NCBI GenBank assembly: GCA_041740795.1
Contig: JBGSLH010000004.1
Coordinates: 1 to 61,710 of the forward strand
Reading direction: 5' to 3'
DNA length: 61,710 nt
From: Minisyncoccia bacterium
Lineage (GTDB): Bacteria; Patescibacteriota; Minisyncoccia; Phycocordibacterales; JAACPR01
The notes beneath the pieces are model-generated. The model was not told where the DNA came from. It did not search any database and worked only from the letters and a program-made list of their open reading frames with translations. The position numbers and the translations under genes are program-made. Positions 1 to 59,703 of this stretch are shown here, in pieces. The stretch's first letter is position 1, and each line of letters opens with the position of its first letter.

Positions 1-48
1 TTTGTGTAAGAAAATGAAATGTTAATTTCCTTTTTCTTGTTCCGTTTA
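1..48 (+). other. 5' strand of 16S precursor processing stem (pairs with 1850-1897)
   Basis: TTTGTGTAAGAAAATG...TTCTTGTTCCGTTTA is complementary to TAAACGGAGCAAGAA...CATTTTCAAACACAAA. Confidence 0.8.
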
Positions 49-78
49 TTTCAAAATTGGTGATGTAAATCACCCATT

Positions 79-1730
79 TATTTTAAGAGTTTGATCCTAG
101 CTCAGGATGAACGCTGGCGACATGGATAAGGCATGCAAGTCGAACGAGGCCTAGAGCCGAGTGGCAGACGAGGTAGTAACATGTGGGAACTTGCCCTAAA
201 GTCAGGAATAATTCGTCGAAAGGCGAACTAATACTTGATAGTCCTGCTGTGTAATAACAGTAAGGTAAAGTTTTAACGCTTTAGGAGAGGCCCGCACAGT
301 ATCAGTTAGTTGGTGAGGTAATGGCTCACCAAGACTATGACGCTTAGGGGAGCTGAGAGGCTGACCCCCACCGATGGTACTGAGACACGGACCATACACC
401 TACGGGTGGCCGCAGTCGAGAATCTTCCACAATGGGCGCAAGCCCGATGGAGCGATGTCGCGTGATTGATGAAGTGTTTCGGCATGTAAAGATCTTTTCT
501 CGAGGAGGAAGTTTATTGACGTTACTCGAGGAATAAGGGGTTGCTAAACTCGTGCCAGCAGCAGCGGTAATACGAGTGCCCCAAGCGTTATCCGGAATTA
601 TTGGGCGTAAAGGGTCCGCAGGCGGCTCTATTAGTCTTGTGTGAAATCTCCCGGCTTAACTGGGAAGACGCATAGGAAACGGTAGAGCTAGAGGATGTGA
701 GAGGTATGTGGAACTCATGGTGTAGGGGTGAAATCCGTTGATATCATGGGGAACACCGAATGCGAAGGCAGCATACTGGCACATTCCTGACGCTCAGGGA
801 CGAAAGCACGGGTAGCGAATGGGATTAGATACCCCAGTAGTCCGTGCCCTAAACGATCCTGACTTGCTTTTTGGAGTATCGACCCTCCAAGAGGCGTAGC
901 TAACGCGTTAAGTCAGGCGCCTGGGTAGTACGACCGCAAGGTTAAAACTCAAAGGAATAGACGGGGACTTGCACAAGCGGTGGATCATGTGGCTTAATTC
1001 GTCGATAAACGAAGAACCTTACCAAGGCTAGAAATCTATATGCAAGGCTACAGAAACGTAGTCCCTCTTCGGACATATAGACAGGTGATGCATGGCCGTC
1101 GTCAGTTCGTGGTTTGAATTGTTCCCTTAAGTGGGGTAACGAACGCAACCCTCGTCGTGTGTTATACGTGTCACACGAGACTGCCCCCGCCTCAACTTTT
1201 AAATTTTCCGTAAAATCCGGCTAAAAAATGTCTTCTGAATTCAGAGTAGATAACCTACACTTCATTCAGTTCAACATTTTTTATCTCGAATTTTGCAGAA
1301 AAATTTTGAAAAGTTACATTCTAAAATATTTAGGATGTGACTTATTAGAATAGTTTGAAATGTGAGGCGGGGGAGGAAGGCGAGGATGACGCCAGGTCAG
1401 CATGTCCCTTGATGCCTTGGGCCGCACACGTGATACAATGCCCATAACAACAAGACGCAATGCCGTAAGGTGGAGCAAATCTTTATAAAAATGGGCTCAG
1501 TTCGGATTGAGGTCTGCAACTCGACCTCATGAAGTTGGAATCGCTAGTAATCGCAGGTCAGCTATACTGCGGTGAATACGTTCTCAAGTCTTGTACTCAC
1601 CGCCCGTCAAGTCAAGGGAGCTGGGAGCACCCGAAGTCTCATTTTATATGGGATTAAGGTGAGTTCAGTAACAGGGACTAAGTCGTAACAAGGCACGGGT
1701 AGCGGAAGCTGTTCGTGGATTATTTCAAAT
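79..1730 (+). rRNA. rrs: 16S rRNA (with internal insertion)
   Basis: AGAGTTTGATCCTAGCTCAG at 86-105, GTGCCAGCAGCAGCGGTAA at 552-570, ATTAGATACCC, AAGTCGTAACAAGG at 1680-1693; ends are approximate. Confidence 0.98.
1186..1371 (+). other. Intervening sequence / expansion in 16S helix 40
   Basis: AT-rich insert between GAGACTGCC and GGAGGAAGG, closed by CCCGCCTCA/TGAGGCGGG; long internal hairpins; no ORF. Confidence 0.9.
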
Positions 1731-1900
1731 GAAAATCGTTGATACCGAAAGGTATTGATTCCGAGTCGATTTCTGTGCCTCAATTGAGCACAGAAAAACA
1801 ATAGTATTCAGTTTCAAAAGTATACTCAGACAGTAGGAAAGACTATACTTAAACGGAGCAAGAACAAGGCACTTAACACCACATTTTCAAACACAAATAT

Positions 1901-1950
1901 CGCACAAATACCCATTTCTCTTAGGAGAGGTGGGTATTTTGCGTTTACTT
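1901..1950 (+). terminator. Intrinsic terminator after 16S
   Basis: AAATACCCATTTCTC-TTAG-GAGAGGTGGGTATTT hairpin followed by T-rich tail. Confidence 0.7.
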
Positions 1951-1984
1951 TACTAAATAAGCTTTATATGTTATAAATATAGGG

Positions 1985-2095: not shown

Positions 2096-2147
2096 GTGCC
2101 TTGTCGGAGTCATACTTCTGGATCGTTCCTCAAGTGATGACTAGGTA

Positions 2148-2187: not shown

Positions 2188-2205
2188 ATTTTTGTACCTT
2201 GCTCC

Positions 2206-2255: not shown

Positions 2256-2298
2256 AGAATCCTTTACAAATAGACTATAGTGTGCTATTATATATTGG

Positions 2299-2604
2299 AT
2301 GAAAACTGTTCTATCCGTTACTGCTGTCGCCATGTTTGTCGTTCTCGCCATCTTTGGAATTCAAAGGGGACTGAGAAGTACCTTGAGTGTTCCTTTGGTG
2401 TACATGCCCTCTGATTCAGTGGTTTATGACACGGAAGAAGGATTTGATTCTTCTCCTGTCATTGCCGTTCAGAATCCTGATGGGACATGGATGCGTTCGG
2501 ACAAATGGCCAACAGTCTTGAAGCAACGCTATGAAATCACATACGTATCACCCGATTGGGTGCCTCCGTATGTGGCGGATCCGTCACTTCTCACTTTGAG
2601 ATGA
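2299..2604 (+). CDS. Hypothetical membrane-anchored/secreted protein
   Basis: 101-aa ORF with N-terminal hydrophobic segment, own TTTACA-17-TATTAT promoter and downstream terminator. Confidence 0.75.
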   Translation: MKTVLSVTAVAMFVVLAIFGIQRGLRSTLSVPLVYMPSDSVVYDTEEGFDSSPVIAVQNPDGTWMRSDKWPTVLKQRYEITYVSPDWVPPYVADPSLLTLR

Positions 2605-3344: not shown

Positions 3345-3899
3345 TTAAGCAATCAATCGTCCTTCAAAGTATCTATTTTCAATTTGAGATATCGCTATAT
3401 TAAAATTAGTTGATTGAATAATTTCAAATGCTTTTTCTTCAAAAGGTTTAAAACTTAGTGGAAGAATATTAATTAGAGTTTTTGAAATTAATTTCTTATC
3501 AAAAATAGAGCTTTCAATATAACCTAATCTTAATAAATACCAAGTTGCAACAAATAGGGAGCAAGGATATTTTTTTGTTTTTACGTAATCTAAAATTTGT
3601 TTTTTTAAAGTGCCATTATGAATCAATGATAGTACCTCATCACAACTTGGAATTAGTTGGGATTCTCTTAAGATGATATCTGGCTGGAATCCTTCTTTTT
3701 TTAACCACTGTGTAAGAATAGTATAATCAAAAGATAGATCGGGAAATGAATAATCATCAACCATTACAACCAGAGTTGTTGATTTGCCTCTGTGTTCTTT
3801 TGTTACGCCTTGAAGTATTTCAACAGAAAACACTTGTTCATCACTAATGTTTTTATTTGTGTAAATATGAGCGTATTCAATAGAGATATCTTTTTTCAT
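3345..3899 (-). CDS. Hypothetical protein, possibly SCO2522-like (HUP/Rossmann-type)
   Basis: 184-aa ORF; motifs SIEYAHIY, VMVDDY, RES, CSLFVATWYLLRLG, ILPxxFxxxE. Confidence 0.75.
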   Translation of the reverse strand: MKKDISIEYAHIYTNKNISDEQVFSVEILQGVTKEHRGKSTTLVVMVDDYSFPDLSFDYTILTQWLKKEGFQPDIILRESQLIPSCDEVLSLIHNGTLKKQILDYVKTKKYPCSLFVATWYLLRLGYIESSIFDKKLISKTLINILPLSFKPFEEKAFEIIQSTNFNIAISQIENRYFEGRLIA

Positions 3900-3935
3900 A
3901 ATAGAAGTATATCAAAAGATTTAATTAGTTATTCC

Positions 3936-5736: not shown

Positions 5737-5754
5737 TATATCATATGTGATATA
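5737..5754. promoter_or_regulatory. Palindrome overlapping divergent murB/murA -10 elements (candidate operator)
   Basis: TATATCA-TATG-TGATATA in a 29-bp intergenic gap. Confidence 0.55.
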
Positions 5755-5762
5755 TTGGGTAT

Positions 5763-7280
5763 ATGTCAAAAAAGAATTCAGCATCAGATTCCTTGCAGAA
5801 AATCGGAACACTTATCAAGTCACTCAGGTCACAGAAAGGTCTTACTCAAGGTGATTTTGCAAAACTACTCAAGACATCACAGAGCGCCGTTGCACGGATA
5901 GAATCCGGAAATCAGAATCTTACAACGAACGAAATTCTCAAGATTGGAGAAGTTCTTCATCGTAAAATAATCTCACTCGACAAGTCGATCGATTTTAAAA
6001 TCATCGGAGGAAAAAAACTCAGCGGTTCAATCGAGACGAATACGTCCAAGAACGGCGCGATGGGATTGCTCTGCGCATCTCTACTCAACAAAGGAACTAC
6101 AATTCTCAGACGCGTGCCACGTATCGAAGAAGTGAATCGAGTACTTGAAGTGTTCGATAGTATCGGTGTGCAGTACAAATGGGAAGGGACGACCCTGACT
6201 ATCAAACCTCCCAAAAAATTCAAGATGAGCAACTTGCAGGCGGAGTCTGCTAGTAAAATCCGTTCTGCACTTATGATGATTGGTTCGCTTATACATCATG
6301 TCGAATCTTTTGATCTTCCTCATGCAGGAGGATGCAAGATGGGAGAGCGAACCATCGCAGCTCACCGCTACGGACTCGAAGAGCTTGGAATCAAGATTGA
6401 TACGAAGTCTGATTTTTATAAGATATCAAAAAAGAAACTGCACAGGGCGGACATTGTCATGTACGAAGCAGGTGACACAGCTGTGATCAATATTCTTCTT
6501 GCTGCAGCGGGGATTCCTCAAGAAACCAACATCTCATTTGCTTCGTCGAATTACCAGGTCCAGGAGGTGTGCTTTTTTCTCCAGAAGATGGGAGTGATTG
6601 TTGAAGGAATCGGAACACATCGGCTCAAGGTAAAAGGAATAAAAGATATTAATATGACAATTGAATTTTCATGTGCAGAAGATCCGATCGAGTCCATGAT
6701 GTTTATTGCTGCCGCGATTGTTACGCAGTCCGAATTGACCGTCAAAAAATGCCCAATCGATTTTCTTGCTCTCGAACTCCTCAAACTAGAGAAAATGGGA
6801 CTCAAATATAAAAAGAGCAAAGTATACAAATCTGAGAATGAGCACACTGACCTTGTTGATGTTGTCGTGTATCCATCGAAGCTAGTCGCGCCTGCAGACA
6901 AGATCGCTGCCATGCCGTATCCAGGAATCAACACGGACAACCTTCCGTTTTTTGTTCCGATAGCAACACAAGCAGAAGGGCAGACTCTTATACATGACTG
7001 GATGTGGGAAAATCGCGCGATCTATTTTACGGAACTTAATAGGCTCGGTGCCAACATTAAGCTTGCAGATCCTCATCGTGTGTTCGTAATAGGAAAGACT
7101 CCACTTAAGGCCGCGCAGATCGTGTGTCCGCCTGCGCTTCGTCCTGCGATGATCATCTTGATCGCGATGCTTGCAGCACCGGGCGAATCTATCTTGAGAA
7201 ACGTATATGCGATTGAAAGAGGATATGAGGATATTGCAAATCGTCTGAATTCCATCGGGGCGGATATCAAGATTGTGTAA
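5763..7280 (+). CDS. murA: XRE-HTH fused UDP-N-acetylglucosamine 1-carboxyvinyltransferase
   Basis: N-terminal LRSQKGLTQGDFAKLLKTSQSAVARIESG HTH; SKNG, LPHAGGCKMGER (catalytic Cys), PYPGINTD, RGYE. Confidence 0.95.
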   Translation: MSKKNSASDSLQKIGTLIKSLRSQKGLTQGDFAKLLKTSQSAVARIESGNQNLTTNEILKIGEVLHRKIISLDKSIDFKIIGGKKLSGSIETNTSKNGAMGLLCASLLNKGTTILRRVPRIEEVNRVLEVFDSIGVQYKWEGTTLTIKPPKKFKMSNLQAESASKIRSALMMIGSLIHHVESFDLPHAGGCKMGERTIAAHRYGLEELGIKIDTKSDFYKISKKKLHRADIVMYEAGDTAVINILLAAAGIPQETNISFASSNYQVQEVCFFLQKMGVIVEGIGTHRLKVKGIKDINMTIEFSCAEDPIESMMFIAAAIVTQSELTVKKCPIDFLALELLKLEKMGLKYKKSKVYKSENEHTDLVDVVVYPSKLVAPADKIAAMPYPGINTDNLPFFVPIATQAEGQTLIHDWMWENRAIYFTELNRLGANIKLADPHRVFVIGKTPLKAAQIVCPPALRPAMIILIAMLAAPGESILRNVYAIERGYEDIANRLNSIGADIKIV

Positions 7281-9649: not shown

Positions 9650-9682
9650 GTGTTTATGCAGATAATATGATAGATTAGGCGT

Positions 9683-10354
9683 ATGTCAAATCTATACGTA
9701 GTCGCAACTCCCATAGGGAACCTCAAAGATATCACTTTGCGGGCACTCGAAATTCTCAAGCATGCAGATATTATCCTCTGTGAAGACACTCGGACGACCA
9801 AAAAACTCCTCTTTGCATATCAGATTTCTGCCAAGTGCATCGCCTTCCACAAGTTCAGTACGGATAGGGAAATCGAATCCATCCTCAATCTTTTTGAAAC
9901 ATACGAGCATGTCGCGCTTGTGAGTGATGCAGGAACTCCAGCTATCAGTGATCCTGGATCGCTTTTGATAAAGCTCGTCCGAGAACAGAAGCCAGAAGTT
10001 TCGATCCAGGGAATCGCCGGTGCGAGTGCTATAACGACTGCTATTTCTATCTCAGGACTACCAATGGCACAGTTCACCTTTATGGGATTTCTTCCACACA
10101 AGAAGGGGAGACAGAAAAAGCTGGATGAGGCGCTCACCTACGGACACTCAGTTATCTTTTACGAGTCGACACATCGCATCCTCAAACTTCTCGAAGAGAT
10201 CGAAACAAGACAGCCTGAACGTCGAATCCTGATTTGCAAAGAACTGACCAAGATGCATGAGCGGGTACTGTCTGGAACAGCGAGAGAACTTTTGACCCAG
10301 ATCGAGCTTGATCCATCTTTACAAAAAGGAGAATTTGTTTTGATTTGCGAATAA
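9683..10354 (+). CDS. rsmI: 16S rRNA C1402 2'-O-methyltransferase
   Basis: LYVVATPIGNLKDITLRA, CEDTR, VSDAGTPAISDPG, FYESTHR, KELTKMHE, KGEFVL. Confidence 0.97.
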   Translation: MSNLYVVATPIGNLKDITLRALEILKHADIILCEDTRTTKKLLFAYQISAKCIAFHKFSTDREIESILNLFETYEHVALVSDAGTPAISDPGSLLIKLVREQKPEVSIQGIAGASAITTAISISGLPMAQFTFMGFLPHKKGRQKKLDEALTYGHSVIFYESTHRILKLLEEIETRQPERRILICKELTKMHERVLSGTARELLTQIELDPSLQKGEFVLICE

Positions 10355-17887: not shown

Positions 17888-18652
17888 CTACTTTGCTTTC
17901 TTGAAATATTGACTGATTTTTTTCGTAATTCTTTTAAGGATAAAGAATCGGGGAATTTTTAATGAATTAACCTTCCATGCTTTTTGTAATTCGTGCCAGC
18001 CTTTTATTCTTTGTTTTAAATTCTGCGCACTTGTTCCCCCTTCTCTCATACTGACAAAAGTTTCGGGAATATATTTTACGTTTATCTTTTCGATCTTCAA
18101 AAGTCTGAGAAGTAGTTCGTAATCAGCGGCAATTGAGAATCGAGGGTCAAAAATTTTATCTAGTTTCTGATACACTTCTTTTCTTACAAAAAAAGTCGGG
18201 TGGGGAATTATCCAGCCATCGTTCAGACTTTCTTCTTCATATTTGCCGGATTTCCAAAAACGAGTCTGTTTTGAAATATTGTCCCGCTCTACATATCTCA
18301 AGTCTCCATATACTGCGTCTATATTTGGATCAGATTCAAACACTGAATTGATTTGAGATAAAATATCTTCAGAAGCAAAAAAATCATCGGAATTCAAAAT
18401 GCCGACAATGTCACATGTAGCGATTAAGATCCCTTTGTTCATTGCGTCATAGATTCCATTGTCAGGTTCTGAAATTAATGTAATATTTATTTTGTTTTTG
18501 TATGTTGAAATAAGTTTTTGGGTACCATCTGTTGAAGCTCCATCAACTATAATATATTCCAAGTCAGAATAATTTTGACCAATAACGCTTTGGATTGTGT
18601 CTCCAATTGTCTTACTCGAATTATAAGAGGGTGTAATTATTGTGATTTTCAT
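17888..18652 (-). CDS. Glycosyltransferase family 2 (WcaE-like)
   Basis: KITIITPSYN, IVDGASTDGT, GIYDAMNKG, LNSDD, PHPTFF. Confidence 0.93.
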   Translation of the reverse strand: MKITIITPSYNSSKTIGDTIQSVIGQNYSDLEYIIVDGASTDGTQKLISTYKNKINITLISEPDNGIYDAMNKGILIATCDIVGILNSDDFFASEDILSQINSVFESDPNIDAVYGDLRYVERDNISKQTRFWKSGKYEEESLNDGWIIPHPTFFVRKEVYQKLDKIFDPRFSIAADYELLLRLLKIEKINVKYIPETFVSMREGGTSAQNLKQRIKGWHELQKAWKVNSLKIPRFFILKRITKKISQYFKKAK

Positions 18653-18655
18653 TAT

Positions 18656-19408
18656 CTATAGAATTTTGTATGTGGCCAAAATTTCCGTTGATGTTTCAAC
18701 AGTTGAACTATTCAAAGGAGAAAGCGTATATCCTAATGACTTTAGTAATTCAATACATTCTTGATGTATCTGCTCACTATGGGTAGATAAAAATATAGTA
18801 GGGTGGAATTCTTTTAAGGTTTGTAATGCACCATGTAATACATCGACTTCTGCACCTTCAACATCAATTTTCATTAGATTGGGTCTAAGAATAATTTGAT
18901 CGGCAATTAATTCATCGAGACTTATGACTGGTACAAGTAGGCCACTTTTTTCCTGACTCAAAAAACCTGTTGCAGCATGATCTCCGTCATTAAAATAAAC
19001 CACATCCTTTTTATTTGAAACTCCTCCAATAAAAACTTTTGAATTAGTACAGGTATTCAAATCAAAATGTCTTTTTAGATAATGAACGTTTCTCGGTGCT
19101 GGTTCAAAAGCGTACACATTCCCTCTGTCTCCTACAATTTTTGAAGCGATAAGAGAATAAAAACCAACATTTGCACCAATATCAAAAACCGTATCACCTT
19201 CTTTGATCTTGTCTGTGAACATTCTTTGCTGTTCAATTTCGTATGTTCCAAGCCAGTATGCATTTACTCCAGATCCTTTTATCCATCGAGATCCTTTCAA
19301 TGAACCTTGCAAGATGGGTAGGATTGTTTCATTGGGAATAATCTTGAGAAGTAATCTTGAAAAAGATCCAAGAAGTGTTTTTTTTGAAATTTTTGAAATA
19401 TTGATCAT
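18656..19408 (-). CDS. FkbM-family methyltransferase
   Basis: VFDIGANVG, AFEP, MKIDVEGAE. Confidence 0.92.
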   Translation of the reverse strand: MINISKISKKTLLGSFSRLLLKIIPNETILPILQGSLKGSRWIKGSGVNAYWLGTYEIEQQRMFTDKIKEGDTVFDIGANVGFYSLIASKIVGDRGNVYAFEPAPRNVHYLKRHFDLNTCTNSKVFIGGVSNKKDVVYFNDGDHAATGFLSQEKSGLLVPVISLDELIADQIILRPNLMKIDVEGAEVDVLHGALQTLKEFHPTIFLSTHSEQIHQECIELLKSLGYTLSPLNSSTVETSTEILATYKIL

Positions 19409-20313
19409 GTAATTAGGGTAAAAAGCTTTTTAATAAAATGTTTCCAGAATGGATAATTGTTTCTTTGGGTAATATTATCAGATTCGATGTCTTTAACAAT
19501 ATTTACAGGATGATTCAATGGAAATTGAAGTGGTGATGTCACCATATTTGCAAACTTACTGATCCTTTTTGTGTGAGTAGATTGTAGGTCTCCGAATCCG
19601 ATATTAGAAATGAGATTAACTGAAGGCATGATGGAAAGATAGTTGTTAGTGAAACACGCATATGACCACTGGTAATCCCATGTATCTATTTTGTTATTGT
19701 ATACATCATCAAATATCGAAGACCAGTAAAAAGCATCTTTTTTATTTCCGAATATTTGATCGAGCCCCTTTTGTCTTTTTGTATCTGGCCAATTGGATAG
19801 CGCAACGTCGTATTTTGCCCACGCCCTTTTCCAGGTTGCCCATCCCCAAATGTGCGAGTATTTTGAAAAGTAATAGCTGTATTCATTCTTAATTTTTCCA
19901 AATTGAAAATTGTCACCACTGATCATTCCAATTCGATCATCATCCTTGTACTTCTCCAGCATCTCCTCACAGAATTTGAAGAATGTTTGATCAGGAAGAC
20001 AATCATCCTCCAAGATAATCCCTTGTTCTTCGTTCTCAAAAAACCAATCTATTCCTGAAGACACTCTTTTTTTACAGCCAAGATTTATATCTGAATAATT
20101 TTTAAACACTTCGCATTCCCAATCGATCAAGTCTAGTATTTTGCGAGTTTCAGAACATAATATATCTTCATTCTTTTTTTCATTTCGTGCTCCATCTGCG
20201 ACAATATATAATTTTGTCGGCCTTAGTTCTTTTATTTTCTTAAAAACTTGAAAAGTAGTATCAGGTCGATTGAATATGATAAACAATATTGGGGTTTTGA
20301 AAGTCAGATTCAT
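19405..20313 (-). CDS. Nucleotide-diphospho-sugar transferase (HlpA-like GT-A)
   Basis: PILFIIFNRPD, IVADGAR, NLGCK, IILEDDC, HIWGWATW. Confidence 0.88.
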   Translation of the reverse strand: MNLTFKTPILFIIFNRPDTTFQVFKKIKELRPTKLYIVADGARNEKKNEDILCSETRKILDLIDWECEVFKNYSDINLGCKKRVSSGIDWFFENEEQGIILEDDCLPDQTFFKFCEEMLEKYKDDDRIGMISGDNFQFGKIKNEYSYYFSKYSHIWGWATWKRAWAKYDVALSNWPDTKRQKGLDQIFGNKKDAFYWSSIFDDVYNNKIDTWDYQWSYACFTNNYLSIMPSVNLISNIGFGDLQSTHTKRISKFANMVTSPLQFPLNHPVNIVKDIESDNITQRNNYPFWKHFIKKLFTLIT

Positions 20314-20314
20314 A

Positions 20315-21025
20315 TTATAGGTATTTACACACAAAGAATAACATCCTCACTAGAATATTGGGAGTGGGTAGGTTGTTATCTTGCATCTCTTTTAGATATT
20401 TGTCATGGTTAAGGTCTCCAAGTGAATCTCCTCTTTTTGTAAAAATTACAGACGATATGGGAAGATATGTAAAAGTTGAATCTTTGATCTGTGCAATTTT
20501 TACAAACAAATCAAGATCTCCACAGATTTTGAAATTAGAATACTTAAAACCTCCAACTTGACTATAAATGTTTTTGGAAAAGATAATACTTGGTTGGATT
20601 GCAGGGATACATCCGTGTTTTAAAAAGAATTTTCCAAATCTCCTCCCTTTGCCAAACTCGGTGCGGTTTTCATTTGTAAAAAAATAAGTACCGTCAGAAT
20701 ATATAAAATCAATTTTTCCTTTAGTCGCTTTTATATAGAGTTGCTCATAACCGGTAGGAATTATTCGATCGTCTGCATTTACCCATGTTATGAGATCACT
20801 TTGAGCTTCTTTGAACCCTTGATCTATTGCTCCGTACATTCCTGTGGCTTCTGTTTGATGGAAAAGTTTGATGTGTGGATATTTTGAAATTATCTCCAAG
20901 GAATTATCTGTCGAACCTCCATCTACTATAATATGTTCAAAAGGAATAGAAAGTTTTTGAATGGACAAAATATTATCTTCGATATATTTTCCATTATTAA
21001 GGTTTGGAGTGATTATGGAAAGCAT
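20315..21025 (-). CDS. Glycosyltransferase family 2
   Basis: SIITPNLN, IVDGGSTD, WVNADD. Confidence 0.9.
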   Translation of the reverse strand: MLSIITPNLNNGKYIEDNILSIQKLSIPFEHIIVDGGSTDNSLEIISKYPHIKLFHQTEATGMYGAIDQGFKEAQSDLITWVNADDRIIPTGYEQLYIKATKGKIDFIYSDGTYFFTNENRTEFGKGRRFGKFFLKHGCIPAIQPSIIFSKNIYSQVGGFKYSNFKICGDLDLFVKIAQIKDSTFTYLPISSVIFTKRGDSLGDLNHDKYLKEMQDNNLPTPNILVRMLFFVCKYL

Positions 21026-21026
21026 A

Positions 21027-21980
21027 TTAGGAATGGATAAGCTTAACAAGACTGGACTTTATCTTTCGTAACTTCCTAAGTAGAGTATATTCATGGATTG
21101 ATACGGGCTTTCGACCAACTCTTTTTATAAATTCATTTTCAAGATCTTTGATATGCCAGATCTCTAAAGGTTCAAAAAATTCTATACTCTGGGTATCAAA
21201 TAAGTTATATATTTCTTGTTTGTGCCAACTATCTAGGGGTTCAATTGAGGGGTGTTGTGATTTGTAATCTATAATCCATTCTTCTGGTGTTGTAGATAGT
21301 TTTCTAATTGCACATTCGAGTGAATGTGCATACGAAGAATTGATAGAAATATATCTTTTTGGATCTTTTACTAATTCACTACATCGGTATAGTGCTTGTT
21401 TGTACTGAGTCTTTTCCCAAAAGGTCCATTGGAGGTGAATTATCGGTGTAGAATCAACTTTTACACATGTTGTCAAAAAACCTTGAGGAATACGCGAAAC
21501 ATGATCATTGATTATAACTTCTGTGTCATAGTTTGTGATTCCATCATCTACCCACGCTGCACGTTGGTAATTTTTGTACCATACACCTGTGCTGTTGTAA
21601 TGTTTTAAAGATTTCCATAATTGTATCCATGGGAATCTGAAACTGTCACCAACCTTAAAATCATGTTCATTTAAAAACTTTCTAAACATATTAACAGGAA
21701 TATACTCATCTGCATCCAAACAAAGTATAAGATTTCCTTCTCCATATTGCCTGGCTTTTTTTAAGAGATCCCATCTAACTTGGTTTGAATGTCCTTCTCT
21801 CGGATTATCAATTACTGTCACTTTTGGAAAGTTTTTATACAATTCTTTTGATCCGTCAGTAGACATCTGATCAGATATAATAATTACATCGCAATATTGA
21901 GTAAGTATGTTCAAGGTAATTGGTAAAACAGCAATCTCATTTTTTACAGGCATAAGACATATTACTTTTGGGTTTTGCAT
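21027..21980 (-). CDS. Glycosyltransferase family 2-like
   Basis: CLMPVKNE, DQMSTDGS, CLDADE. Confidence 0.85.
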   Translation of the reverse strand: MQNPKVICLMPVKNEIAVLPITLNILTQYCDVIIISDQMSTDGSKELYKNFPKVTVIDNPREGHSNQVRWDLLKKARQYGEGNLILCLDADEYIPVNMFRKFLNEHDFKVGDSFRFPWIQLWKSLKHYNSTGVWYKNYQRAAWVDDGITNYDTEVIINDHVSRIPQGFLTTCVKVDSTPIIHLQWTFWEKTQYKQALYRCSELVKDPKRYISINSSYAHSLECAIRKLSTTPEEWIIDYKSQHPSIEPLDSWHKQEIYNLFDTQSIEFFEPLEIWHIKDLENEFIKRVGRKPVSIHEYTLLRKLRKIKSSLVKLIHS

Positions 21981-21983
21981 AAC

Positions 21984-23207
21984 TTATTTTGACCTTAATT
22001 TTTTAATTTGTCTGTATAAGGTAATAGTATATCTATTGTAAAACAATATTCGTAATTTTGTTAAAAAATGGAAAAATAATCTACGAGCCCGGTGAGGGAA
22101 GGGATTTTGTAATACATCCTTATAAATTTTGACGATCTTCCGTATTTGATTTTTGAGTTCATAGTGTTCGTTAAATCTTTCTTTTGCGTTTGTAGATAGT
22201 AAAGTATAGTACTCTTTATCATTCATTAATCTTGCAAGTTCTTCGGCATACTCTTCAATTGTGTCTACAACCTTGCCAGCATTACCGATTGCTTCTATGT
22301 GTCCATTTGCCATTGTCGATGTATGACTTACAATCGGTAATCCAAAATACATAGCTTCTGCCATTGCTGAAGAATTCACTTCTCCATCTTTTCGCCCATG
22401 AGAAAATACATCCAGTGTCAAAATAAAATTGTAGATATCATCTTGGGTTTCTGCATAAGGGAGAAATACGATGTTCTTAATACCTAACTCCTGAGCTTGT
22501 TTTTTGTACAGATCACTTCCGTTCAATAGTAAAAATACTGTATGTTCATTTTCGATCTTTTTGTATGCCGCAAGAGGGATGGGGGAATATATCCAATCAT
22601 CTTTTCGTTGGTGAAAACCAAAGACAAACTTGTTCTCAATTTTTAATTTTGGACGCAAGTCGACATAATTCTTTTTGGGTATCTCAATGAATGTGGAAAT
22701 AATCTCTACTCGTTTCGAATCGCCACCCTTTTTAATCCATTGATTTGCGGACCAACTTGAAATATGTAGAACTCGGGAAATATTGTACTGATTGTCTATG
22801 CCTGCCAACAAATGAAGAGAATCAATAATCGGAGTTTTTTTAATTTTTGTAAAGGGATATTCTGGATATCCTCCTCTGCCTGTTTGAATAAGATCATAAT
22901 TCTTTTCATTAAATTTTTCCCAAAAATCAGTTCCGATCCAGTCGTGATTTGGAGATGTTACGTCTTTGTATGCAACATGAAACTTAACAAGATTCACGGG
23001 ACTATTTTGTAGAAATTCGACTCGTTCTGGATCTGTATCGAGATGTTTAAAATCACTTCCAAGATATGGCGCTGCATCGCAATAAAAATAATCCACTGAA
23101 AACTTGTCTTCGGGTAGATTTGCTGCAAGAACCTGAAGAAACTTCTCAGTACCTCCTGCAGAGAGTCCTCCAAATTTTATAAAGGCGATTTTAATTTTTT
23201 GGGTCAT
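21984..23207 (-). CDS. Glycosyltransferase family 4 (GT-B)
   Basis: GGTEK N-terminal motif, DVFSHGRKDGEVNSSAMAEAMYFGLPIVS. Confidence 0.87.
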   Translation of the reverse strand: MTQKIKIAFIKFGGLSAGGTEKFLQVLAANLPEDKFSVDYFYCDAAPYLGSDFKHLDTDPERVEFLQNSPVNLVKFHVAYKDVTSPNHDWIGTDFWEKFNEKNYDLIQTGRGGYPEYPFTKIKKTPIIDSLHLLAGIDNQYNISRVLHISSWSANQWIKKGGDSKRVEIISTFIEIPKKNYVDLRPKLKIENKFVFGFHQRKDDWIYSPIPLAAYKKIENEHTVFLLLNGSDLYKKQAQELGIKNIVFLPYAETQDDIYNFILTLDVFSHGRKDGEVNSSAMAEAMYFGLPIVSHTSTMANGHIEAIGNAGKVVDTIEEYAEELARLMNDKEYYTLLSTNAKERFNEHYELKNQIRKIVKIYKDVLQNPFPHRARRLFFHFLTKLRILFYNRYTITLYRQIKKLRSK

Positions 23208-24150
23208 TGTTTTGTTCTTCCAATATTTTATCGACCGCAATTTTTACAGCTTCATCCGAGGATAATCGAGGACTCCAACCAAGTTTCTTGAGCTTTGAAA
23301 AATCATATTTAAATTGTGACACGTCACCGACCCATCCTCTGCTTCCGCCCGTATACCTTATTTTTGCAGGCAGTGACATGCAAGAGATAACGGTCTCTGC
23401 AATATGGGATACTTTTGTCTGGGTATCTACTCCGATATTGTATACGTTGAATTCTTCATTTGAATTCTTCCACACGAACAAAATTGCATCCACTATTTCC
23501 TTAACATAGATATACGGCTTGTTTTGCTGTCCATCTCCAAGAACTTCCAACTCGTATGGAGTGGCCCGAAGTTTTCTTATGAAATCATAAATTGCTCCGT
23601 GTGTGGCATATTCACCGACAACGTTAGGGAAGCGTGTAACCCATACCTTTATCCCGTAATTATGAGCATAGGCACTCAAGAAACCTTCCGAAGCTAATTT
23701 TGCGGCACCATAATGAGAGATCGGGATTAGTGGGCCGGTATCTTCTGTCACTGCTAGGTTGGTATCGCCCCAGACAGCACCGGTTGAAGGGAATATGATT
23801 TCCTTGATCCCGTTGATGCGTGCCTGTTCCAGCACTGCAATCGTTGTCTGGAAAGTATTCTTATAATCAATGTCTGGAGATTTCATGCTGTTTGAAATGT
23901 CCGAGTTGGCCGCGAGGTGGAATATAACGTCAATGGTGTTTTTTTTAAAAACATTCCCGAATTCCTCTTCGTTCAAGATATCCCCCCTGATGAACGAAAA
24001 ATTCTCGCTTGTGCGCAGTCTTGCAATATTCCTCTCGACTCCGAGGGAGAGATTGTCGAAAGCTACGACTTTGTGTCCTTGCGCAAGAAGCTCTTCACAT
24101 ACGTGATTACCGATGAATCCTGCACCTCCTGTTACGAGTATTGTTTTCAT
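23191..24150 (-). CDS. NAD-dependent epimerase/dehydratase
   Basis: ILVTGGAGFIG, FHLAAN, YGAAK. Confidence 0.95.
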   Translation of the reverse strand: MKTILVTGGAGFIGNHVCEELLAQGHKVVAFDNLSLGVERNIARLRTSENFSFIRGDILNEEEFGNVFKKNTIDVIFHLAANSDISNSMKSPDIDYKNTFQTTIAVLEQARINGIKEIIFPSTGAVWGDTNLAVTEDTGPLIPISHYGAAKLASEGFLSAYAHNYGIKVWVTRFPNVVGEYATHGAIYDFIRKLRATPYELEVLGDGQQNKPYIYVKEIVDAILFVWKNSNEEFNVYNIGVDTQTKVSHIAETVISCMSLPAKIRYTGGSRGWVGDVSQFKYDFSKLKKLGWSPRLSSDEAVKIAVDKILEEQNNDPKN

Positions 24151-24155
24151 ATTAT

Positions 24156-24872
24156 TTATATCTTAAATCCAGCACTTTGTGCATCGTTATAAAACATCTT
24201 TACCGTATCCAGAGAATATTCATCTAGATCATAACCAATAAGGGATAATTTTTTGAGAATATCATTGGTTACTGTTATGATGTGGCATCCAATATCATCT
24301 GCTTGGAAAATATTGAGGAGTTCCCGAGGACTGGCCCAAATCAATTCTGCTTTTGGATTACTTTTCATTATTTCAATAGATTCGGTCATGAGAGGGAGTG
24401 GGTCATGGCCTGTGTCTGCAATTCGTCCTGCAAAGACAGAGATGCAGCTTGGAACTTCCGGATTGAGTACTGCAACGACATTCTTGACCTGTTCAAGCGT
24501 CATGAGTGCGGTTACATTTACTTTGACCTTTTGATCAGTCAGTCTTTTTATGAGATCGTAGCAAGGTTCCTGTTTTGTATTTGTAATCGGAATTTTCACG
24601 TATACATTTTTACCCCAGCTCGCAATCTCCAGTGCCTGTCTCTCCATCTCGTCAAAGTCATCAGAAAAAACTTCAAAAGAAATCGGCTTATTCTGAATAA
24701 TAGACAGAATATCTTTTGCAAACTCACTATAATTCGTAATCCCGGCTTTCTTCATGAGTGTCGGATTTGTAGTGAGTCCTTTTATGAAATCCTTTTCGTA
24801 CATTTCAAGCATACCTGCCTTGTCCGCTCCATCTGCAAAAATCTTTATGTTCAGGTCGTTAATTGTTTTCAT
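24156..24872 (-). CDS. tal: Transaldolase (short family)
   Basis: GLTTNPTLM, NVYVKIP, VNVT, SVFAGRIAD, LIWAS. Confidence 0.9.
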   Translation of the reverse strand: MKTINDLNIKIFADGADKAGMLEMYEKDFIKGLTTNPTLMKKAGITNYSEFAKDILSIIQNKPISFEVFSDDFDEMERQALEIASWGKNVYVKIPITNTKQEPCYDLIKRLTDQKVKVNVTALMTLEQVKNVVAVLNPEVPSCISVFAGRIADTGHDPLPLMTESIEIMKSNPKAELIWASPRELLNIFQADDIGCHIITVTNDILKKLSLIGYDLDEYSLDTVKMFYNDAQSAGFKI

Positions 24873-24875
24873 GTT

Positions 24876-25445
24876 TTATTGTGTTATTAAGTCGAGTACT
24901 TCTGATAATTCACATATTGAGTGAAGAGGGGAACTCGCTCCTCGTTTTTTATTGGAATGGTCGTTGATAAGTTGAATTGTTTTTACTCCGGCCGCAATCC
25001 CACATTCAATATCGTTATCTTGGTCTCCGATCATCCATGAGCCTGAAAGATCCAGACTGTAGTCGTATGCAGCTTTTTTTATGAAGAATGGTTTTGGTTT
25101 ACGACATTCACAAGGACCTGAATATTCAGATATCACCCCGTCCGGATGATGATAACAGTAATAATATTCTTTAATATTTATACCATATTTTTCAATCTGT
25201 TCCTGGAGCCTTCGGTGGATTTCCTTGATGTTTTCAAGTGATGTTTTGCCTTTTGCATAGCTTGGCTGATTTGAAATGGTAAAGAGGTTGTATCCCATGT
25301 CATTGAACTTTTTGAGGGTTTCGAGTACGTTCGGTCTCAAAATCAAGTCATGCGGTTCATGGGGAGATTCATAATCGTCAGTTTTTGGATTGAAAACCAA
25401 TTCATTTATGACGCCGTCCCTGTCTAAGAAAATTGCCTTGTTCAT
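24876..25445 (-). CDS. gmhB: D,D-heptose 1,7-bisphosphate phosphatase (HAD)
   Basis: AIFLDRDGVIN, SNQP, CYHHP, CECRKPKP, MIGD. Confidence 0.93.
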   Translation of the reverse strand: MNKAIFLDRDGVINELVFNPKTDDYESPHEPHDLILRPNVLETLKKFNDMGYNLFTISNQPSYAKGKTSLENIKEIHRRLQEQIEKYGINIKEYYYCYHHPDGVISEYSGPCECRKPKPFFIKKAAYDYSLDLSGSWMIGDQDNDIECGIAAGVKTIQLINDHSNKKRGASSPLHSICELSEVLDLITQ

Positions 25446-26149
25446 TATTTGGTGGATTCCCACTTTGCTTCCTGTACCTTGAGTGTTGGACTTGAAACAA
25501 GCAAGTGCCAGATTACAGCGTGAAAAGATTCTGTAAGGGGAGTGACCATGTCAGGATTTACGGTAGGTACGATTATTGCGACGTCTGCAACTTGTGCTGT
25601 ATAGCCGCCATCCCTTCCTACGATTCCGAATATTTTTGCGTTAACTTCTTTTGCGAACTTCAATGCCTTTACAATATTGGTACTGATATTTTTCTCTTCA
25701 TTTCCTCCTCCTACTGAAATAACAAAAATGCAGTCCTTTGAAGTAAGTCTGCTTCCCTTGAGCCAGTTTACAAAGACAGAATCCCATCCGTCATCATTGG
25801 TACGTGCCGTAAGTTCTGAAACGTTGTCAGTCGGGGCATATGCCTCAATCCCGACTAGTTTTCGAAAGTCATTCACTGCATGGCCGGCGTTGCCCGCACT
25901 TCCTCCAACACCAAGGATAAAGAGTCTTCCTCCGTTTGTCCGTGTATCCAAAATAAGCTTGATTGCCTTTTCGATGAGCTCCTTGTCGAGAGCTTTTGTG
26001 ATCTGCTCAACAGCATACAGGTATGAATTGATATAATCGGACATCTCCACGTAGTTTTTCTCGATAGCCGTTATTCGATTGCGTAAAAAAGCCAGCTCCT
26101 CGTCTGAATTTTTAAAAGTCTTCTGTTCCTGTGGGAATTCGGGATTCAT
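25445..26149 (-). CDS. gmhA: Phosphoheptose isomerase (SIS) with N-terminal extension
   Basis: LGVGGSAGNAGHAVNDF, TARTNDDGW, ISVGGG, TESFHAVIWH; alternative start 26044. Confidence 0.88.
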   Translation of the reverse strand: MNPEFPQEQKTFKNSDEELAFLRNRITAIEKNYVEMSDYINSYLYAVEQITKALDKELIEKAIKLILDTRTNGGRLFILGVGGSAGNAGHAVNDFRKLVGIEAYAPTDNVSELTARTNDDGWDSVFVNWLKGSRLTSKDCIFVISVGGGNEEKNISTNIVKALKFAKEVNAKIFGIVGRDGGYTAQVADVAIIVPTVNPDMVTPLTESFHAVIWHLLVSSPTLKVQEAKWESTK

Positions 26150-26160
26150 GTTCCGTAATG

Positions 26161-26853
26161 TTAGTTAATGTATTTTTTAAAATCTTCAATACCATCAAAA
26201 GAGCCTATCTCATAAAATCTCTGTTTTGTTTCAAAACCGAGCATTTTGCCATCTTCCACCAACTTCTTACTTATATGAGCTAGATCGGATACCTCACCGT
26301 CACTAAGGGTATTAAAGCACTCTTTGGTCAGAATGGAAAGCCCATATTCTATGAACTTCATTTCAGGAACAGGATTGCCTTTGTCGTACTTCATGAGCGT
26401 ATTTTCTTCAAAAATCACGTTGCTTTTATCCCACTTATTTTCGTTCTTGATAACCGTCATCAGTGCCTGGCTTGAGTTTTTTTCAAAAAAATCAGAAACT
26501 TCCCGAAAGTCTATCGGCAGGTAGGAATCTCCGTACATCATGAAAAAAGTTTCAGGCAGAAGAGGCAGAGCTTTCTTTATGGTTCCGGCCGTACCTAGTA
26601 GGGTGTTCCCATCAGGAGAATATGAAACCTTGAGACCAAATTTTGTTCCATCGCCCACGAATTCCTCAATCTGTTCACCGAGATATCCTGTACAAATAAC
26701 GACATGCTCAATACCTTGCTTCTTTAACAGATTCAGCTGATATTCAATAAAAGGTTTTCCATGTATCTCTATCATGGCTTTTGGGACGGATTGACTGAGC
26801 GGTCTTATTCGAGTTGCCAATCCTCCTGACAATAATACTAGGCTTGTGATCAT
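26161..26853 (-). CDS. hddC: Heptose-1-phosphate nucleotidyl(guanylyl)transferase
   Basis: LSGGLATRIRP, PKAM, LLGTAG, YGDSY; context. Confidence 0.82.
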   Translation of the reverse strand: MITSLVLLSGGLATRIRPLSQSVPKAMIEIHGKPFIEYQLNLLKKQGIEHVVICTGYLGEQIEEFVGDGTKFGLKVSYSPDGNTLLGTAGTIKKALPLLPETFFMMYGDSYLPIDFREVSDFFEKNSSQALMTVIKNENKWDKSNVIFEENTLMKYDKGNPVPEMKFIEYGLSILTKECFNTLSDGEVSDLAHISKKLVEDGKMLGFETKQRFYEIGSFDGIEDFKKYIN

Positions 26854-26858
26854 GGTTC

Positions 26859-27836
26859 TTAAAATAATATCTTTGTTCCTTCAAAATCAAATTTGAAGCG
26901 TACCTCCTCAAGACCCTCTGAAGCCAATGTTTTTCGGAGCTGCGCCTTATCATTTGCGTAAAACATCAGGAATCCGCCTCCACCTGCACCAATCAGCTTT
27001 CCGCCTATTGCTCCGTTTTGCATTGCAAGCGCATACCATTCGTCTATCTTGGGGTTGGACATGTTTCCAGAACGCTTCTTCTTGTGTTCCCAGTGAACGT
27101 TCATAAGTTTTCCAAAAGTTTCAAGATCTCCATTCTCGAGGGCAGTCTTACTTTTAAGCCCCAACTCTTTCACAAAGTGCAAGTTGGAGATCATGTCTTC
27201 GTTGTTTGTCTTGCTCTTGTCATTTTGTTCTTTGAGAATTGTTCCGGCGGCTCGCGAGTATCCCGTAAAAAACAAAAGAAGATTATCTTCGAGATTATGG
27301 AGTGTCTCTTTGTTGATTTTGAGAGGAGATATCTTGACCTCTCCATTTTTACAGAATTCAAAACACGTAATGCCTCCATGTGCGGCAATGTATTGGTCTT
27401 GTTTTCCTATCGGCTCGTTCAGTCGGTCGATCTCGATGTGGCAAGCTTGCTGGGCCAATTCAGACTGACTTAGAATATTTTTCTCATAATGATTCAGGCC
27501 TTTTAGTAGGGCAGTGGTAAAGCTTCCTGAAGATCCGAGCCCTGTCCCTGCAGGAATGTCAGCGACGCTCGTTATTTCGATCTGCGTCGTATCGGGACTT
27601 ATCAACTTGAGCGATTCCTTGATGATGGGGTGCTCGATGGAGTCGACGTTCTGAACGGTCTCTATCTTTGAATATTTGAGGAAAATATCGGGAATAAAAG
27701 GCTTGCTTATCGTGATATAAACATATTTATCAATGGCTGCGGCTACGAGAAAACCACCGTGCTGACCATAATATGATTCAAGGTCGGTACCTCCTCCTCC
27801 GAGGCTTATTCGTAATGGACTTCGTGTTATAAGCAT
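26859..27836 (-). CDS. hddA: D-glycero-alpha-D-manno-heptose 7-phosphate kinase (GHMP)
   Basis: RSPLRISLGGGGTD, PAGTGLGSSGS, IGKQDQY, GGKLIGAGGGGF. Confidence 0.93.
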   Translation of the reverse strand: MLITRSPLRISLGGGGTDLESYYGQHGGFLVAAAIDKYVYITISKPFIPDIFLKYSKIETVQNVDSIEHPIIKESLKLISPDTTQIEITSVADIPAGTGLGSSGSFTTALLKGLNHYEKNILSQSELAQQACHIEIDRLNEPIGKQDQYIAAHGGITCFEFCKNGEVKISPLKINKETLHNLEDNLLLFFTGYSRAAGTILKEQNDKSKTNNEDMISNLHFVKELGLKSKTALENGDLETFGKLMNVHWEHKKKRSGNMSNPKIDEWYALAMQNGAIGGKLIGAGGGGFLMFYANDKAQLRKTLASEGLEEVRFKFDFEGTKILF

Positions 27837-27839
27837 GTG

Positions 27840-28775
27840 TTAAACAGCATAGCATACGGTTTCTAGGCGAGAAAGGGCGTGTTGTCGGTAGTATATTTTG
27901 TAATCGGGATTAAGGGATTTTATCAGAAAGGGTACTTGCCAGAAGTGTTCTGTCTTATGATATACGCAGATGGCGAGCTTGGGCCTGTTTTTTTTGATGA
28001 TGCCTTGCATTCCTGTGAGGGCTTCAAGCTCCGATCCTTCCACGTCGAGCTTGATGAATGTGATCTTATCTTTCTGTTCTTGAGTCAGAAGGTCATCCAG
28101 TCGAATAACCTCAATAATATCTCCCCCTTCTTCAGTAATGGATGAACCTATACCTCTTTGGTCAAAGTTTATTTTTTTATTTTCTGAATACAGTCCGTAG
28201 GGATAGTATGTCACCTTATCGTCGTTCAAGTTTAAATTTTTGACTTCAGAAACCAGATCCACGAAATTCTTCTTATCTGGTTCAAAACAATAAATATGGT
28301 CAAAATTTCCCGATGATCTTTTTGTAAATTCTCTGACGGTATCTCCGTTGAATCCGCCGCCATCTACGAAACATTCGTTATTAGCAAGAGTGATGATCCC
28401 TTGAGGGAAATATTCATCCGTATTCAAGAGCTGTGTATGCTTTTCGAGCAGTCCATTTTTCTTGAGGTACTCGGTTTCATTCGTATAATCGTAATCTTTT
28501 ATGAAAGCCAGTTGGGTGCGTATGACTTCTTTTGATGTGTCGTCGGTAGTAAGACTTAGAATGGCATCGATATTTTTCCTGTTAGTATGATAAAAAAGAT
28601 CGGTATCCCTCTTCCTCTTGATACGAACTATTTTCCTTGGAATGAGCAGGCCGTAAGTGAGTATCGAATGCAATGCTCCTCTTGAATTTTTTTGTGCAAG
28701 GGAGTTTAGCCAAATTTTCAAGATATTTTTTTCTCGAAGTCCGAGATGATCTGGGCTGCTTTTTTGGTTTTCCAT
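27840..28775 (-). CDS. FkbM-family methyltransferase
   Basis: FVDGGGFNGD, CFEPD, IKLDVEGSE, LAICVYH. Confidence 0.92.
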   Translation of the reverse strand: MENQKSSPDHLGLREKNILKIWLNSLAQKNSRGALHSILTYGLLIPRKIVRIKRKRDTDLFYHTNRKNIDAILSLTTDDTSKEVIRTQLAFIKDYDYTNETEYLKKNGLLEKHTQLLNTDEYFPQGIITLANNECFVDGGGFNGDTVREFTKRSSGNFDHIYCFEPDKKNFVDLVSEVKNLNLNDDKVTYYPYGLYSENKKINFDQRGIGSSITEEGGDIIEVIRLDDLLTQEQKDKITFIKLDVEGSELEALTGMQGIIKKNRPKLAICVYHKTEHFWQVPFLIKSLNPDYKIYYRQHALSRLETVCYAV

Positions 28776-28783
28776 AATAAGAT

Positions 28784-29581
28784 TTATTTTTGTAAGGTCA
28801 GGAAGTAAAACGATCCGAAAGTTGGCAGGTATTTCTCAAGTGCTATGTTTATGTTGAGATATAGTTTAAACAGTTGTGGAAAATCTTTCATCAGTACCTT
28901 TCTGAAACAAGAAGGAATCCTGAATATATGGGCACCTTGTCGCTTGATAATTTTGAAGCCTGCTTTGGTGGCTATACCTTCGATTTTTTTAGGACTGAAG
29001 GTGTAATGCCTGAGTTGTTCCCATCTTGCATTTTTTTCCGTGCACTGATCCAAATCGACAAGAATCTTTCTGTTTTTGAATCTGGACGGTCCATATAAGA
29101 GACTCTTGTTGTTAGGCATTGAGAACAGGACCATTCCACCTGGTTTCATTACTCTGTAGATCTCTGACATTGCCTTGTCATTATCTGGAATGTGTTCCAG
29201 CACTTCAGAACAGACGGCAGTATCGATACAATCGTCCAACAGGGGAATATCGGTAATATCGACTTGTTCAAAAATAATTCTCTCATCGGGACTCAAATTC
29301 TTCTTTGCCTTTTCAAGTTCCTGCCTGTCGTATTCAAAGCAATATATTTTTTTGAATTTTCCTTGAGCTATCTTGGTATATGGACCTCGTCCTGCGCCAG
29401 CATCCAGAAAACTCTTGTCTGCAGAAGAATATTTTTCGATAAAATCCTTGCAGTTTTTTGCCTTGAGTCTGTGGTAAAAGCGATTCACTGTAAAAGGATC
29501 TGTATAGTCCAAGAACGCATCCATGTGAGGTATGTCAATGAGTCGATCTAGGATATCTTTTTGCGGGTGAAGAAAAGTCAT
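28784..29581 (-). CDS. Class I SAM methyltransferase (Methyltransf_11-like)
   Basis: FLDAGAGRG, CSEVLEHI, KPGG. Confidence 0.9.
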   Translation of the reverse strand: MTFLHPQKDILDRLIDIPHMDAFLDYTDPFTVNRFYHRLKAKNCKDFIEKYSSADKSFLDAGAGRGPYTKIAQGKFKKIYCFEYDRQELEKAKKNLSPDERIIFEQVDITDIPLLDDCIDTAVCSEVLEHIPDNDKAMSEIYRVMKPGGMVLFSMPNNKSLLYGPSRFKNRKILVDLDQCTEKNARWEQLRHYTFSPKKIEGIATKAGFKIIKRQGAHIFRIPSCFRKVLMKDFPQLFKLYLNINIALEKYLPTFGSFYFLTLQK

Positions 29582-29765
29582 TTTTGCGTATGTGGAAAAA
29601 TGTTTATTTTCGAGTAATGAACCTGTAATCCTTGAGTACGTTGTATTGAATAAAGTCTGGTTTTTTATAGTTCATAGTGGACCTTGTAGATCATCAGTAT
29701 AATAAGTGTCTGTAATAGTATTATCAATATCTTCATTAGTAAAGTCACGCAACAAGCGGAATGCG

Positions 29766-30716: not shown

Positions 30717-30727
30717 TGGATATACTT

Positions 30728-31555: not shown

Positions 31556-31556
31556 G

Positions 31557-37218: not shown

Positions 37219-37248
37219 AATATATGCGAATCATGCTATATTTGGTCA

Positions 37249-59642: not shown

Positions 59643-59703
59643 TCTAGCTTGTTTCTTGGGTCTCTATTGCCAATTTTAAATATATTTGTTACTATCCACC
59701 TAC

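Follow-up and report, generated by a model that had tools for sequence, protein, structure and literature searches.

How does a bacterium begin translation once the 3′ end of its 16S rRNA has lost the bases that would pair with messenger RNA? The question is raised by a 61,710-nucleotide stretch of DNA from a Minisyncoccia bacterium of the Patescibacteriota (GenBank assembly GCA_041740795.1, contig JBGSLH010000004.1, positions 1 to 61,710 of the forward strand; hereafter the window), which carries a 16S rRNA gene close to its first letter. A reading of the letters had proposed that the 16S tail lacks the anti-Shine-Dalgarno (anti-SD) sequence and that initiation in this organism is independent of the Shine-Dalgarno (SD) interaction. 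We followed this up in the window, in the assembly to which it belongs (653 kb in 16 contigs, ~40% GC, estimated 79.7% complete) and in related genomes.

The 16S rRNA 3′ end and Shine-Dalgarno usage

The 14 bases at window positions 1717-1730 are GGATTATTTCAAAT, which the Infernal/Rfam covariance model aligns gap-free and with top posterior probability to the consensus GGAUcACCUCCUUu. Relative to that consensus, CACCUCC is replaced by UAUUUCA, so that the CCUCC core reads UUUCA, and in the same tail the Era-binding GAUCA reads GAUUA. Both the exact sequence and the alignment thus bear out a tail without CCUCC. There is no CCTCC within 100 nt 3′ of the tail, and the sole CCTC lies ~50 nt downstream, inside a hairpin. 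A second 16S copy with CCUCC was sought throughout the 653-kb assembly, both by pattern search and with the covariance model, and no second 16S gene was found. The gene is unlinked to any 23S gene.

Usage of SD sequences was interrogated in 639 genes (88% coding), called with a simple codon-usage open reading frame (ORF) caller that takes the longest ATG-initiated frame. The region upstream of starts is poor in G, at only 7-12% in positions -13 to -2, and GGAG, AGGA and GAGG show no positional peak upstream of genes anywhere in the genome. The pentamers AGGAG, GGAGG and GGGAG occur at SD distance (-17 to -5) in 0.8% of genes, compared with 1.0% at a control distance. Paired with a canonical tail, positions -20 to -1 reach a mean duplex energy of -2.23 kcal/mol, as against -3.51 at -70 to -51 and -3.85 inside genes; upstream pairing is weaker than in the controls, and SD-like sequence is therefore depleted. 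The same pipeline returned -7.13 versus -3.95 kcal/mol for 50 kb of E. coli K-12, where 91% of genes lie at or below -4.4, and -5.32 versus -2.74 for an SD-using Patescibacteria genome of another class, indicating that it detects SD usage where present, small genomes of the candidate phyla radiation (CPR) included. The lack of AGGAGG upstream of genes, first remarked on a few genes of the window, therefore holds genome-wide, with no SD enrichment by pentamers or by duplex energy. Recoded stop codons were considered as a confounder and rejected, as standard stops give normal ORF coverage.

Two anti-SD-less relatives behave differently from the window genome, with AGGAG-type motifs at SD distance in 6-8% of genes versus 0-2.5% at the control distance.

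Extended -10 promoters adjacent to start codons

What stands upstream of these genes instead is a promoter element at a fixed position. With the A of ATG as reference, the base profile peaks at T(-15), G(-14), T(-12), A(-11) (53%) and T(-7) (45%). Of 633 genes, 136 have the hexamer TAnnnT beginning at -12, whereas control positions average 19.6 and do not exceed 31 (binomial P = 5e-71). The hexamer begins at -13 in a further 55 genes and at -14 in 51, and TGnTAnnnT begins at -15 in 72 genes where ~2 are expected. Aligned on the hexamer, the sequences give the logo T-n-T-G-n-T-A-t-A-A-T, and a sigma-70 extended -10 box of this form (TnTGnTAtAAT) ends 6-8 nt before the ATG in 37% of genes. Boxed genes also carry a -35 TTG at a 16-18 nt spacer in 17% of cases (6% in controls) and a pyrimidine at -1 in 77%. 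The same analysis of E. coli yields no such peak at -12. In-frame TAA or TAG codons as the source of the -12 'TA' were rejected, since the counts are non-periodic (36 at -15, 33 at -9 and 47 at -6, versus 136) and TG occupies -15/-14.

The motif positions match the -15/-14, -12/-11 and -7 positions of sigma-70 promoters when the A of ATG is taken as +1, which is the signature to be expected of a leaderless transcript. This geometry suggests that genes with a -10 box 6-8 nt before the ATG make leaderless or near-leaderless mRNAs. The context of the boxes follows that of transcription units: a box at -12 to -14 precedes 39-54% of genes that follow a divergent gene or a gap of at least 20 nt (control position, 10-14%), 26% of those with gaps of 0-19 nt, and 6% of those overlapping the upstream gene.

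One possible alternative is that the -12 TAnnnT/TGn motif is an A/U-rich ribosome- or S1-binding element on leadered mRNAs, in which case genes would be SD-less without being leaderless. A/U-rich enhancers are known in SD-poor bacteria, and the genome encodes an S1-like protein of 390 aa. However, the motif is the sigma-70 extended -10 consensus down to its TRTG-type upstream extension, it is accompanied by the -35 TTG enrichment and by the pyrimidine(-1)/purine(+1) rule of transcription start sites, and it is rare before overlapping genes and common after intergenic gaps, as expected for promoters. In the window, a full promoter (TTTACA, 17 nt, TATTAT) stops 7 nt short of the ATG at 2299. We regard an A/U-rich binding element as unlikely.

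A second TA, at -4/-3 (TAnnATG), is found in 90 genes, and a called upstream gene whose end lies 1 nt before the ATG accounts for only 33 of them. In the rest, the TA may belong to the stops of short ORFs that escaped calling, or may simply reflect an A/T preference.

Closely packed genes and routes of initiation

Genes that do not open a transcription unit are often tightly packed. A distance of less than 20 nt from, or an overlap with, the same-strand upstream gene is seen in 201 of 636 genes, the commonest spacings being +1 (33 genes), +2 and +3 (16 each) and -4 (ATGA, 12 genes). Such packing of about one third of genes likely points to coupling or reinitiation. For example, the genes of a 16-gene run on the reverse strand of the window (Table 1) are candidates for either, judged by their spacing.

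Two main routes are proposed. In the first, genes that lead a unit would be transcribed from sigma-70-type extended -10 promoters (TnTGnTAtAAT), so that the mRNA begins at the start codon or 1-2 nt before it and would be translated as a leaderless message. In the second, where a gene overlaps its predecessor or follows it at 1-20 nt, a ribosome that has just finished the first would start on the next. The remaining genes probably use short, A-rich, G-poor leaders, on which S1-assisted initiation is possible because the S1-like protein is encoded.

Distribution and evolution of the altered tail

The loss of CCUCC is not an assembly accident, because relatives in the same genus and order also carry non-CCUCC tails. 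An identical tail is present in two assemblies of the same genus, and CCUCC is missing from all 29 of the 16S 3′ ends recovered from 40 relatives of the genus, family and order. The helix-45 sequence is common to at least 119 species-representative genomes (Paceibacterota, Parcubacteria, and Kaiser-, Nomura-, Taylor-, Zambryski-, Lloyd- and Staskawiczbacteria), and none of the 119 tails listed has CCUCC. Among the matches listed, tails follow the pattern GGA-W-Y-A-W-W-U-Y-M-A or similar, with U at index 8 in 118 of 119, A at index 5 in 101 and C at index 9 in 95. In an evenly drawn class sample of 201 Paceibacteria genomes, ~110 had a recognisable 16S 3′ end; GGAUCACCUCC (CCUCC) is kept in ~40 of these and in none of the same order. 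CCUCC loss is common to the whole order and to roughly two thirds of the sampled class.

The relatives that keep CCUCC are informative as to the order of events. Five such Paceibacteria, from five families, show no SD enrichment in mean energy, with an SD pentamer in at most 0-8% of genes. The other known constraint on the tail comes from the assembly GTPase Era, which recognises GAUCACCUCC through its KH domain (review PMC10582724). Full-length Era (TIGR00436 above cut-off) was found in one of the 201 class genomes, other matches covering the GTPase domain only, and the same profile search detected no Era in this assembly. Ribosomal protein uL1 (PF00687) likewise had no match in this assembly, and was matched in 14 of 14 control genomes. 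As CCUCC-keeping relatives are SD-poor and Era is absent class-wide, decay of the tail would have followed the removal of its constraints. SD usage and Era may have been lost in the class first, leaving the tail free to change in some lineages, and it probably drifted after both known constraints on GAUCACCUCC had gone. The extended -10 signal is found in 6-19% of genes in six anti-SD-less genomes of the order versus 1-5% in five CCUCC-keeping genomes.

The tail may also have taken on a structure. Together with the first bases of the trailer it can form a weak mini-hairpin (1718-1737; Table 1), which is non-significant in the window by itself (-1.4 kcal/mol, z = -0.16). Across relatives, complementary states of the two arms co-occur: TTCA tails with TGAA trailers (79% of 125 tails), CTCA with TGAG (80% of 10 tails), GTCA with TGAC (4 of 4 tails), and TCCA types with TGGA, these being tallies of tails and not of independent evolutionary events. 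The fitted stem is 4.0 pairs long, versus 3.75 when arms are swapped between types and 3.24 in shuffles, a modest excess because AU-rich sequence pairs easily, and the table of arm types is the better evidence. In CCUCC-keeping Paceibacteria, the trailer bases adjoining CCUCC (UUUCUA...) have as their pairing partner a distal segment resembling TAGAAAGG, with another hairpin enclosed between the two. Since those relatives already have a trailer helix starting from ...CC/UUUCUA, the helix would be ancestral, would have served pre-rRNA processing, and would have shifted into the tail once the tail was free to change. The hairpin at 1718-1737 finds its support in the compensatory changes across relatives only, and is probably a feature of the pre-rRNA.

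A different reading of the same helix is that the tail was remodelled: what used to be the anti-SD would form a mini-helix with the 4-7 nt that follow it, and this helix would be kept on the mature 16S rRNA, at the site of the lost SD/anti-SD duplex. The co-occurring arm states and the fitted stem lengths speak for it. Against it stand the negligible hairpin of the window itself, the trailer helix already present in CCUCC-keeping relatives, which fits an ancestral processing helix, and the counting of tails rather than independent events. We think a retained helix decidedly unlikely; it is compatible with SD-independent initiation and would add a function to the tail. In its fullest form, to which we give equally little credence, the tail has been turned into a selected cis element, and a covarying helix on the mature 16S rRNA fills the SD/anti-SD pocket of a ribosome specialised for leaderless and reinitiating translation. 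Ends of metagenome contigs were rejected as a proxy for mature rRNA ends, as these are ordinary DNA contigs whose ends are unclustered.

The altered tail could instead serve as a substitute anti-SD, in which 3′-UAAACUUUAUUAGG-5′ would pair with a motif newly arisen upstream of genes, UUGAAAUAAU for instance; the original prediction had likewise named a GAAATAAT-like substitute. The tail is conserved in the clade, and its complement superficially resembles the upstream TGnTAnAAT motif. Duplex energy with the genome's own tail (GAUUAUUUCAAAU) is nevertheless the same upstream of genes (-2.34 kcal/mol) as at -70 to -51 (-2.30) and inside genes (-2.40), and there is no pairing signal with positions +1 to +18 either (-3.20, compared with -3.08 inside genes). 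No peak at the SD position upstream of genes was found for GAAAT, TGAAA, GAAA or TTGA, so the proposed substitute motif is rejected. The upstream motif T-n-T-G-n-TAtAAT, with invariant T(-12), A(-11) and T(-7), is a sigma-70 signature rather than a complement of the tail, and the same -10 motif is retained in relatives whose tails differ. We consider a substitute anti-SD highly improbable. Initiation in this genome proceeds without tail-mRNA pairing of any kind, and the proposed SD-independence is supported by the G-poor upstream regions and by the lack of both SD enrichment and own-tail pairing. The sequence ATGAAA, which opens 20% of genes, was also rejected as a partner of the tail, as AAA is the top second codon in most sampled genomes whatever their tail, E. 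coli included.

Finally, a degenerate or mis-assembled 16S gene, with a functional CCUCC copy in the missing 20% of the genome, is allowed by the estimated 79.7% completeness and is scarcely credible, given a full-length, high-scoring Rfam match with helices 44 and 45 intact, same-genus assemblies (91-100% complete) with the identical tail and one 16S 3′ end each, an order-wide loss, and mRNAs with no SD for such a copy to read.

Taken as a whole, we hold it probable that in this ultra-small Paceibacteria (Parcubacteria) bacterium an intact, single 16S gene without CCUCC is combined with pairing-free initiation, leaderless and coupled routes, and a tail that drifted once its constraints were lost. 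Several points weigh against this account. The leaderless assignment is drawn from promoter geometry, and about one third of genes fall outside both the strict -10 class and the coupled class. The gene caller is crude, so that gene fractions are rough and probably underestimates. The anti-SD-less genomes tested for the promoter signal all belong to one order and amount to a single phylogenetic contrast. The ~80% complete assembly leaves the absence of uL1, Era and a second 16S gene unproven here, an absence that the complete relatives support. Lastly, the tail is non-random, with positions 85-99% conserved and covariation with the trailer, which makes 'simple decay' an incomplete description.

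Annotated features of the window

Coordinates are collected in Table 1. The secA start illustrates the predicted leaderless class: TGnTAnnnT precedes the ATG in 24 relatives although the flanking sequence has diverged. Box and ATG are 6 nt apart within the genus; most other genera have 7-10 nt between them, and a few have 14-15 nt. The called starts were checked against Pfam domains, which open at residue 5 in the predicted SecA, at residue 4 in the TP_methylase and at residue 15 in bS2.

Table 1. Features annotated in the 61,710-nt window. Transcript leaders are predicted from the distance between -10 box and ATG.
Feature	Coordinates	Strand	Sequence or structure	Basis
boxA-like antitermination motif, 16S leader	38..58	+	TGTTCCGTTTATTTCAAAATT	TTGTTCCG core recurs in 16S 5′ flanks of relatives
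16S rRNA gene	79..1730	+		Rfam RF00177 (SSU_rRNA_bacteria), 1354 bits, model positions 1-1533 (full model)
Helix 45	1694..1717	+	10-bp stem, GGAA loop: CACGGGTAGC-GGAA-GCTGTTCGTG	Rfam alignment, sequence checked
16S 3′ tail	1717..1730	+	GGAUUAUUUCAAAU where bacterial 16S has GGAUCACCUCCUUU	Directly after helix 45
Putative tail/trailer mini-hairpin (weak)	1718..1737	+	UUUC-AAAU-GAAA, outer GAU/AUC pairs	
Full promoter	2263..2301	+	TTTACA, 17 nt, TG-n-TATTAT, 7 nt, ATG 2299	Promoter scan, 10/12 positions, TG present
184-aa ORF start, predicted leaderless	3897..3914	-	TGATATACT, 6 nt, ATG	Sequence
HTH-EPSP-synthase-family gene start, predicted leaderless	5748..5765	+	TGATATATT, 6 nt, ATG	
TP_methylase gene start, predicted leaderless	9668..9685	+	TGATAGATT, 6 nt, ATG	Pfam domain from residue 4
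16-gene run without SD	17888..33086	-	Most gaps -17 to +11 nt, one 184 nt	Gene table
secA start, predicted leaderless	37234..37251	+	TGCTATATT, 6 nt, ATG	Sequence; Pfam SecA_DEAD from residue 5
rpsB (bS2) start, predicted leader ~2 nt	59687..59706	+	TGTTACTAT, 8 nt, ATG	Pfam domain from residue 15

Other observations concern the surroundings of the 16S gene. A TTGTTCCG(T/C) motif, which we take to resemble a boxA antitermination site, is conserved 10-45 nt 5′ of the 16S start in many relatives. In this window it leads into TTATTTCAAAA, which nearly matches the 16S tail by chance. The leader sequence TTATTTCAA (47-55) was rejected as a copy of the tail, being unconserved in relatives and part of the boxA-like TTGTTCCG element. 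Within the gene, an AT-rich insertion of ~165 nt (1196-1360) separates CCCCCGCCUC from GAGGCGGGGG; it looks like an extended helix-40 stem, and may be a CPR-type rRNA insertion or an intervening sequence. The region 3′ of the gene (1731-3040) holds two strong hairpins (1738-1760 and 1769-1797), a terminator-like hairpin with a T-run (2148-2187), a 101-aa ORF (2299-2604) and tRNA-Ile(GAU) (2965-3040). Further along, the 505-aa protein encoded at 5763-7280 (+) joins an N-terminal HTH_3 (XRE-type) domain to an EPSP-synthase/MurA-family domain, an unusual fusion.

Implications and comparison with known systems

This genome is a further, well-documented example of how a large bacterial radiation runs without the SD mechanism, and it adds a testable picture of the replacement, in which extended -10 promoters placed gene by gene would give leaderless mRNAs and reinitiation would serve packed operons. 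This leaderless/coupled architecture is well supported by sequence statistics. The absence of Era and of SD usage across the class, even where CCUCC is kept, suggests an order of events in anti-SD loss. There are practical consequences as well: gene finders with ribosome-binding-site models will misplace start codons in these genomes, and SD-driven initiation should not be assumed in heterologous expression of Paceibacteria genes or in systems built for them.

Anti-SD loss and SD scarcity in Parcubacteria are already published. Tsurumaki, Saito, Tomita and Kanai (2022, RNA 28:1041; PMC9297842) reported that the anti-SD motif is missing in a subgroup of Parcubacteria, being detected in 48% of Parcubacteria, and that the anti-SD-less group overlaps the uL1-less group. 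That the loss occurs in a few lineages, as originally stated, is correct, and this lineage is among the published ones: it shares with the 2022 subgroup its placement (relatives labelled Paceibacteria/Parcubacteria and Kaiser-, Nomura-, Taylor- and Zambryskibacteria), the missing CCUCC(U), an undetected uL1 and an rRNA insertion. Unlike that paper, which gives no account of initiation, the promoter geometry described here points to leaderless and coupled translation. Our literature search found no paper joining leaderless with Parcubacteria, and those joining leaderless with Patescibacteria were unrelated to this question.

A 2024 survey in PLoS One (PMC10783764) places SD-scarce CPR genomes without CCUCC, namely Wolfebacteria and Ca. 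Campbellbacteria, in its category iv, where <5.5% of genes have a stable tail/mRNA interaction and the variant is common to close relatives and to all rrs copies. The window genome resembles this category in its SD pentamers (0.8% versus 1.0%) and in the lack of energy enrichment with either tail, assessed by a method that differs from the paper's, as well as in carrying the variant in a single rrs copy and in same-genus assemblies. It differs from category iii (SD-abundant genomes lacking CCUCC), as its own tail is unpaired with leaders (-2.34 versus -2.30 and -2.40 kcal/mol). The survey lists few CPR genomes, does not describe promoter-proximal starts, and ties leaderless mRNAs mainly to archaea, in contrast to the picture presented here.

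Bacteroidota are similar in their genome-wide lack of SD and in the A-rich, G-poor sequence upstream of starts. Most Bacteroidota keep CCUCC, reportedly sequestered by ribosomal proteins, and their mRNAs are leadered, whereas this genome has lost the core and sets a -10 box at a fixed spacing from the ATG. Leaderless-rich prokaryotes include Actinobacteria, Deinococcus-Thermus and many archaea, and leaderless mRNAs are also found in mitochondria. In Actinobacteria and Deinococcus the anti-SD still functions, and leadered genes are initiated through SD; this genome has no SD gene class at all. Like the leaderless-rich prokaryotes, it places a promoter element at a short, constant spacing from the start codon, such that the ATG is itself the predicted start of transcription.

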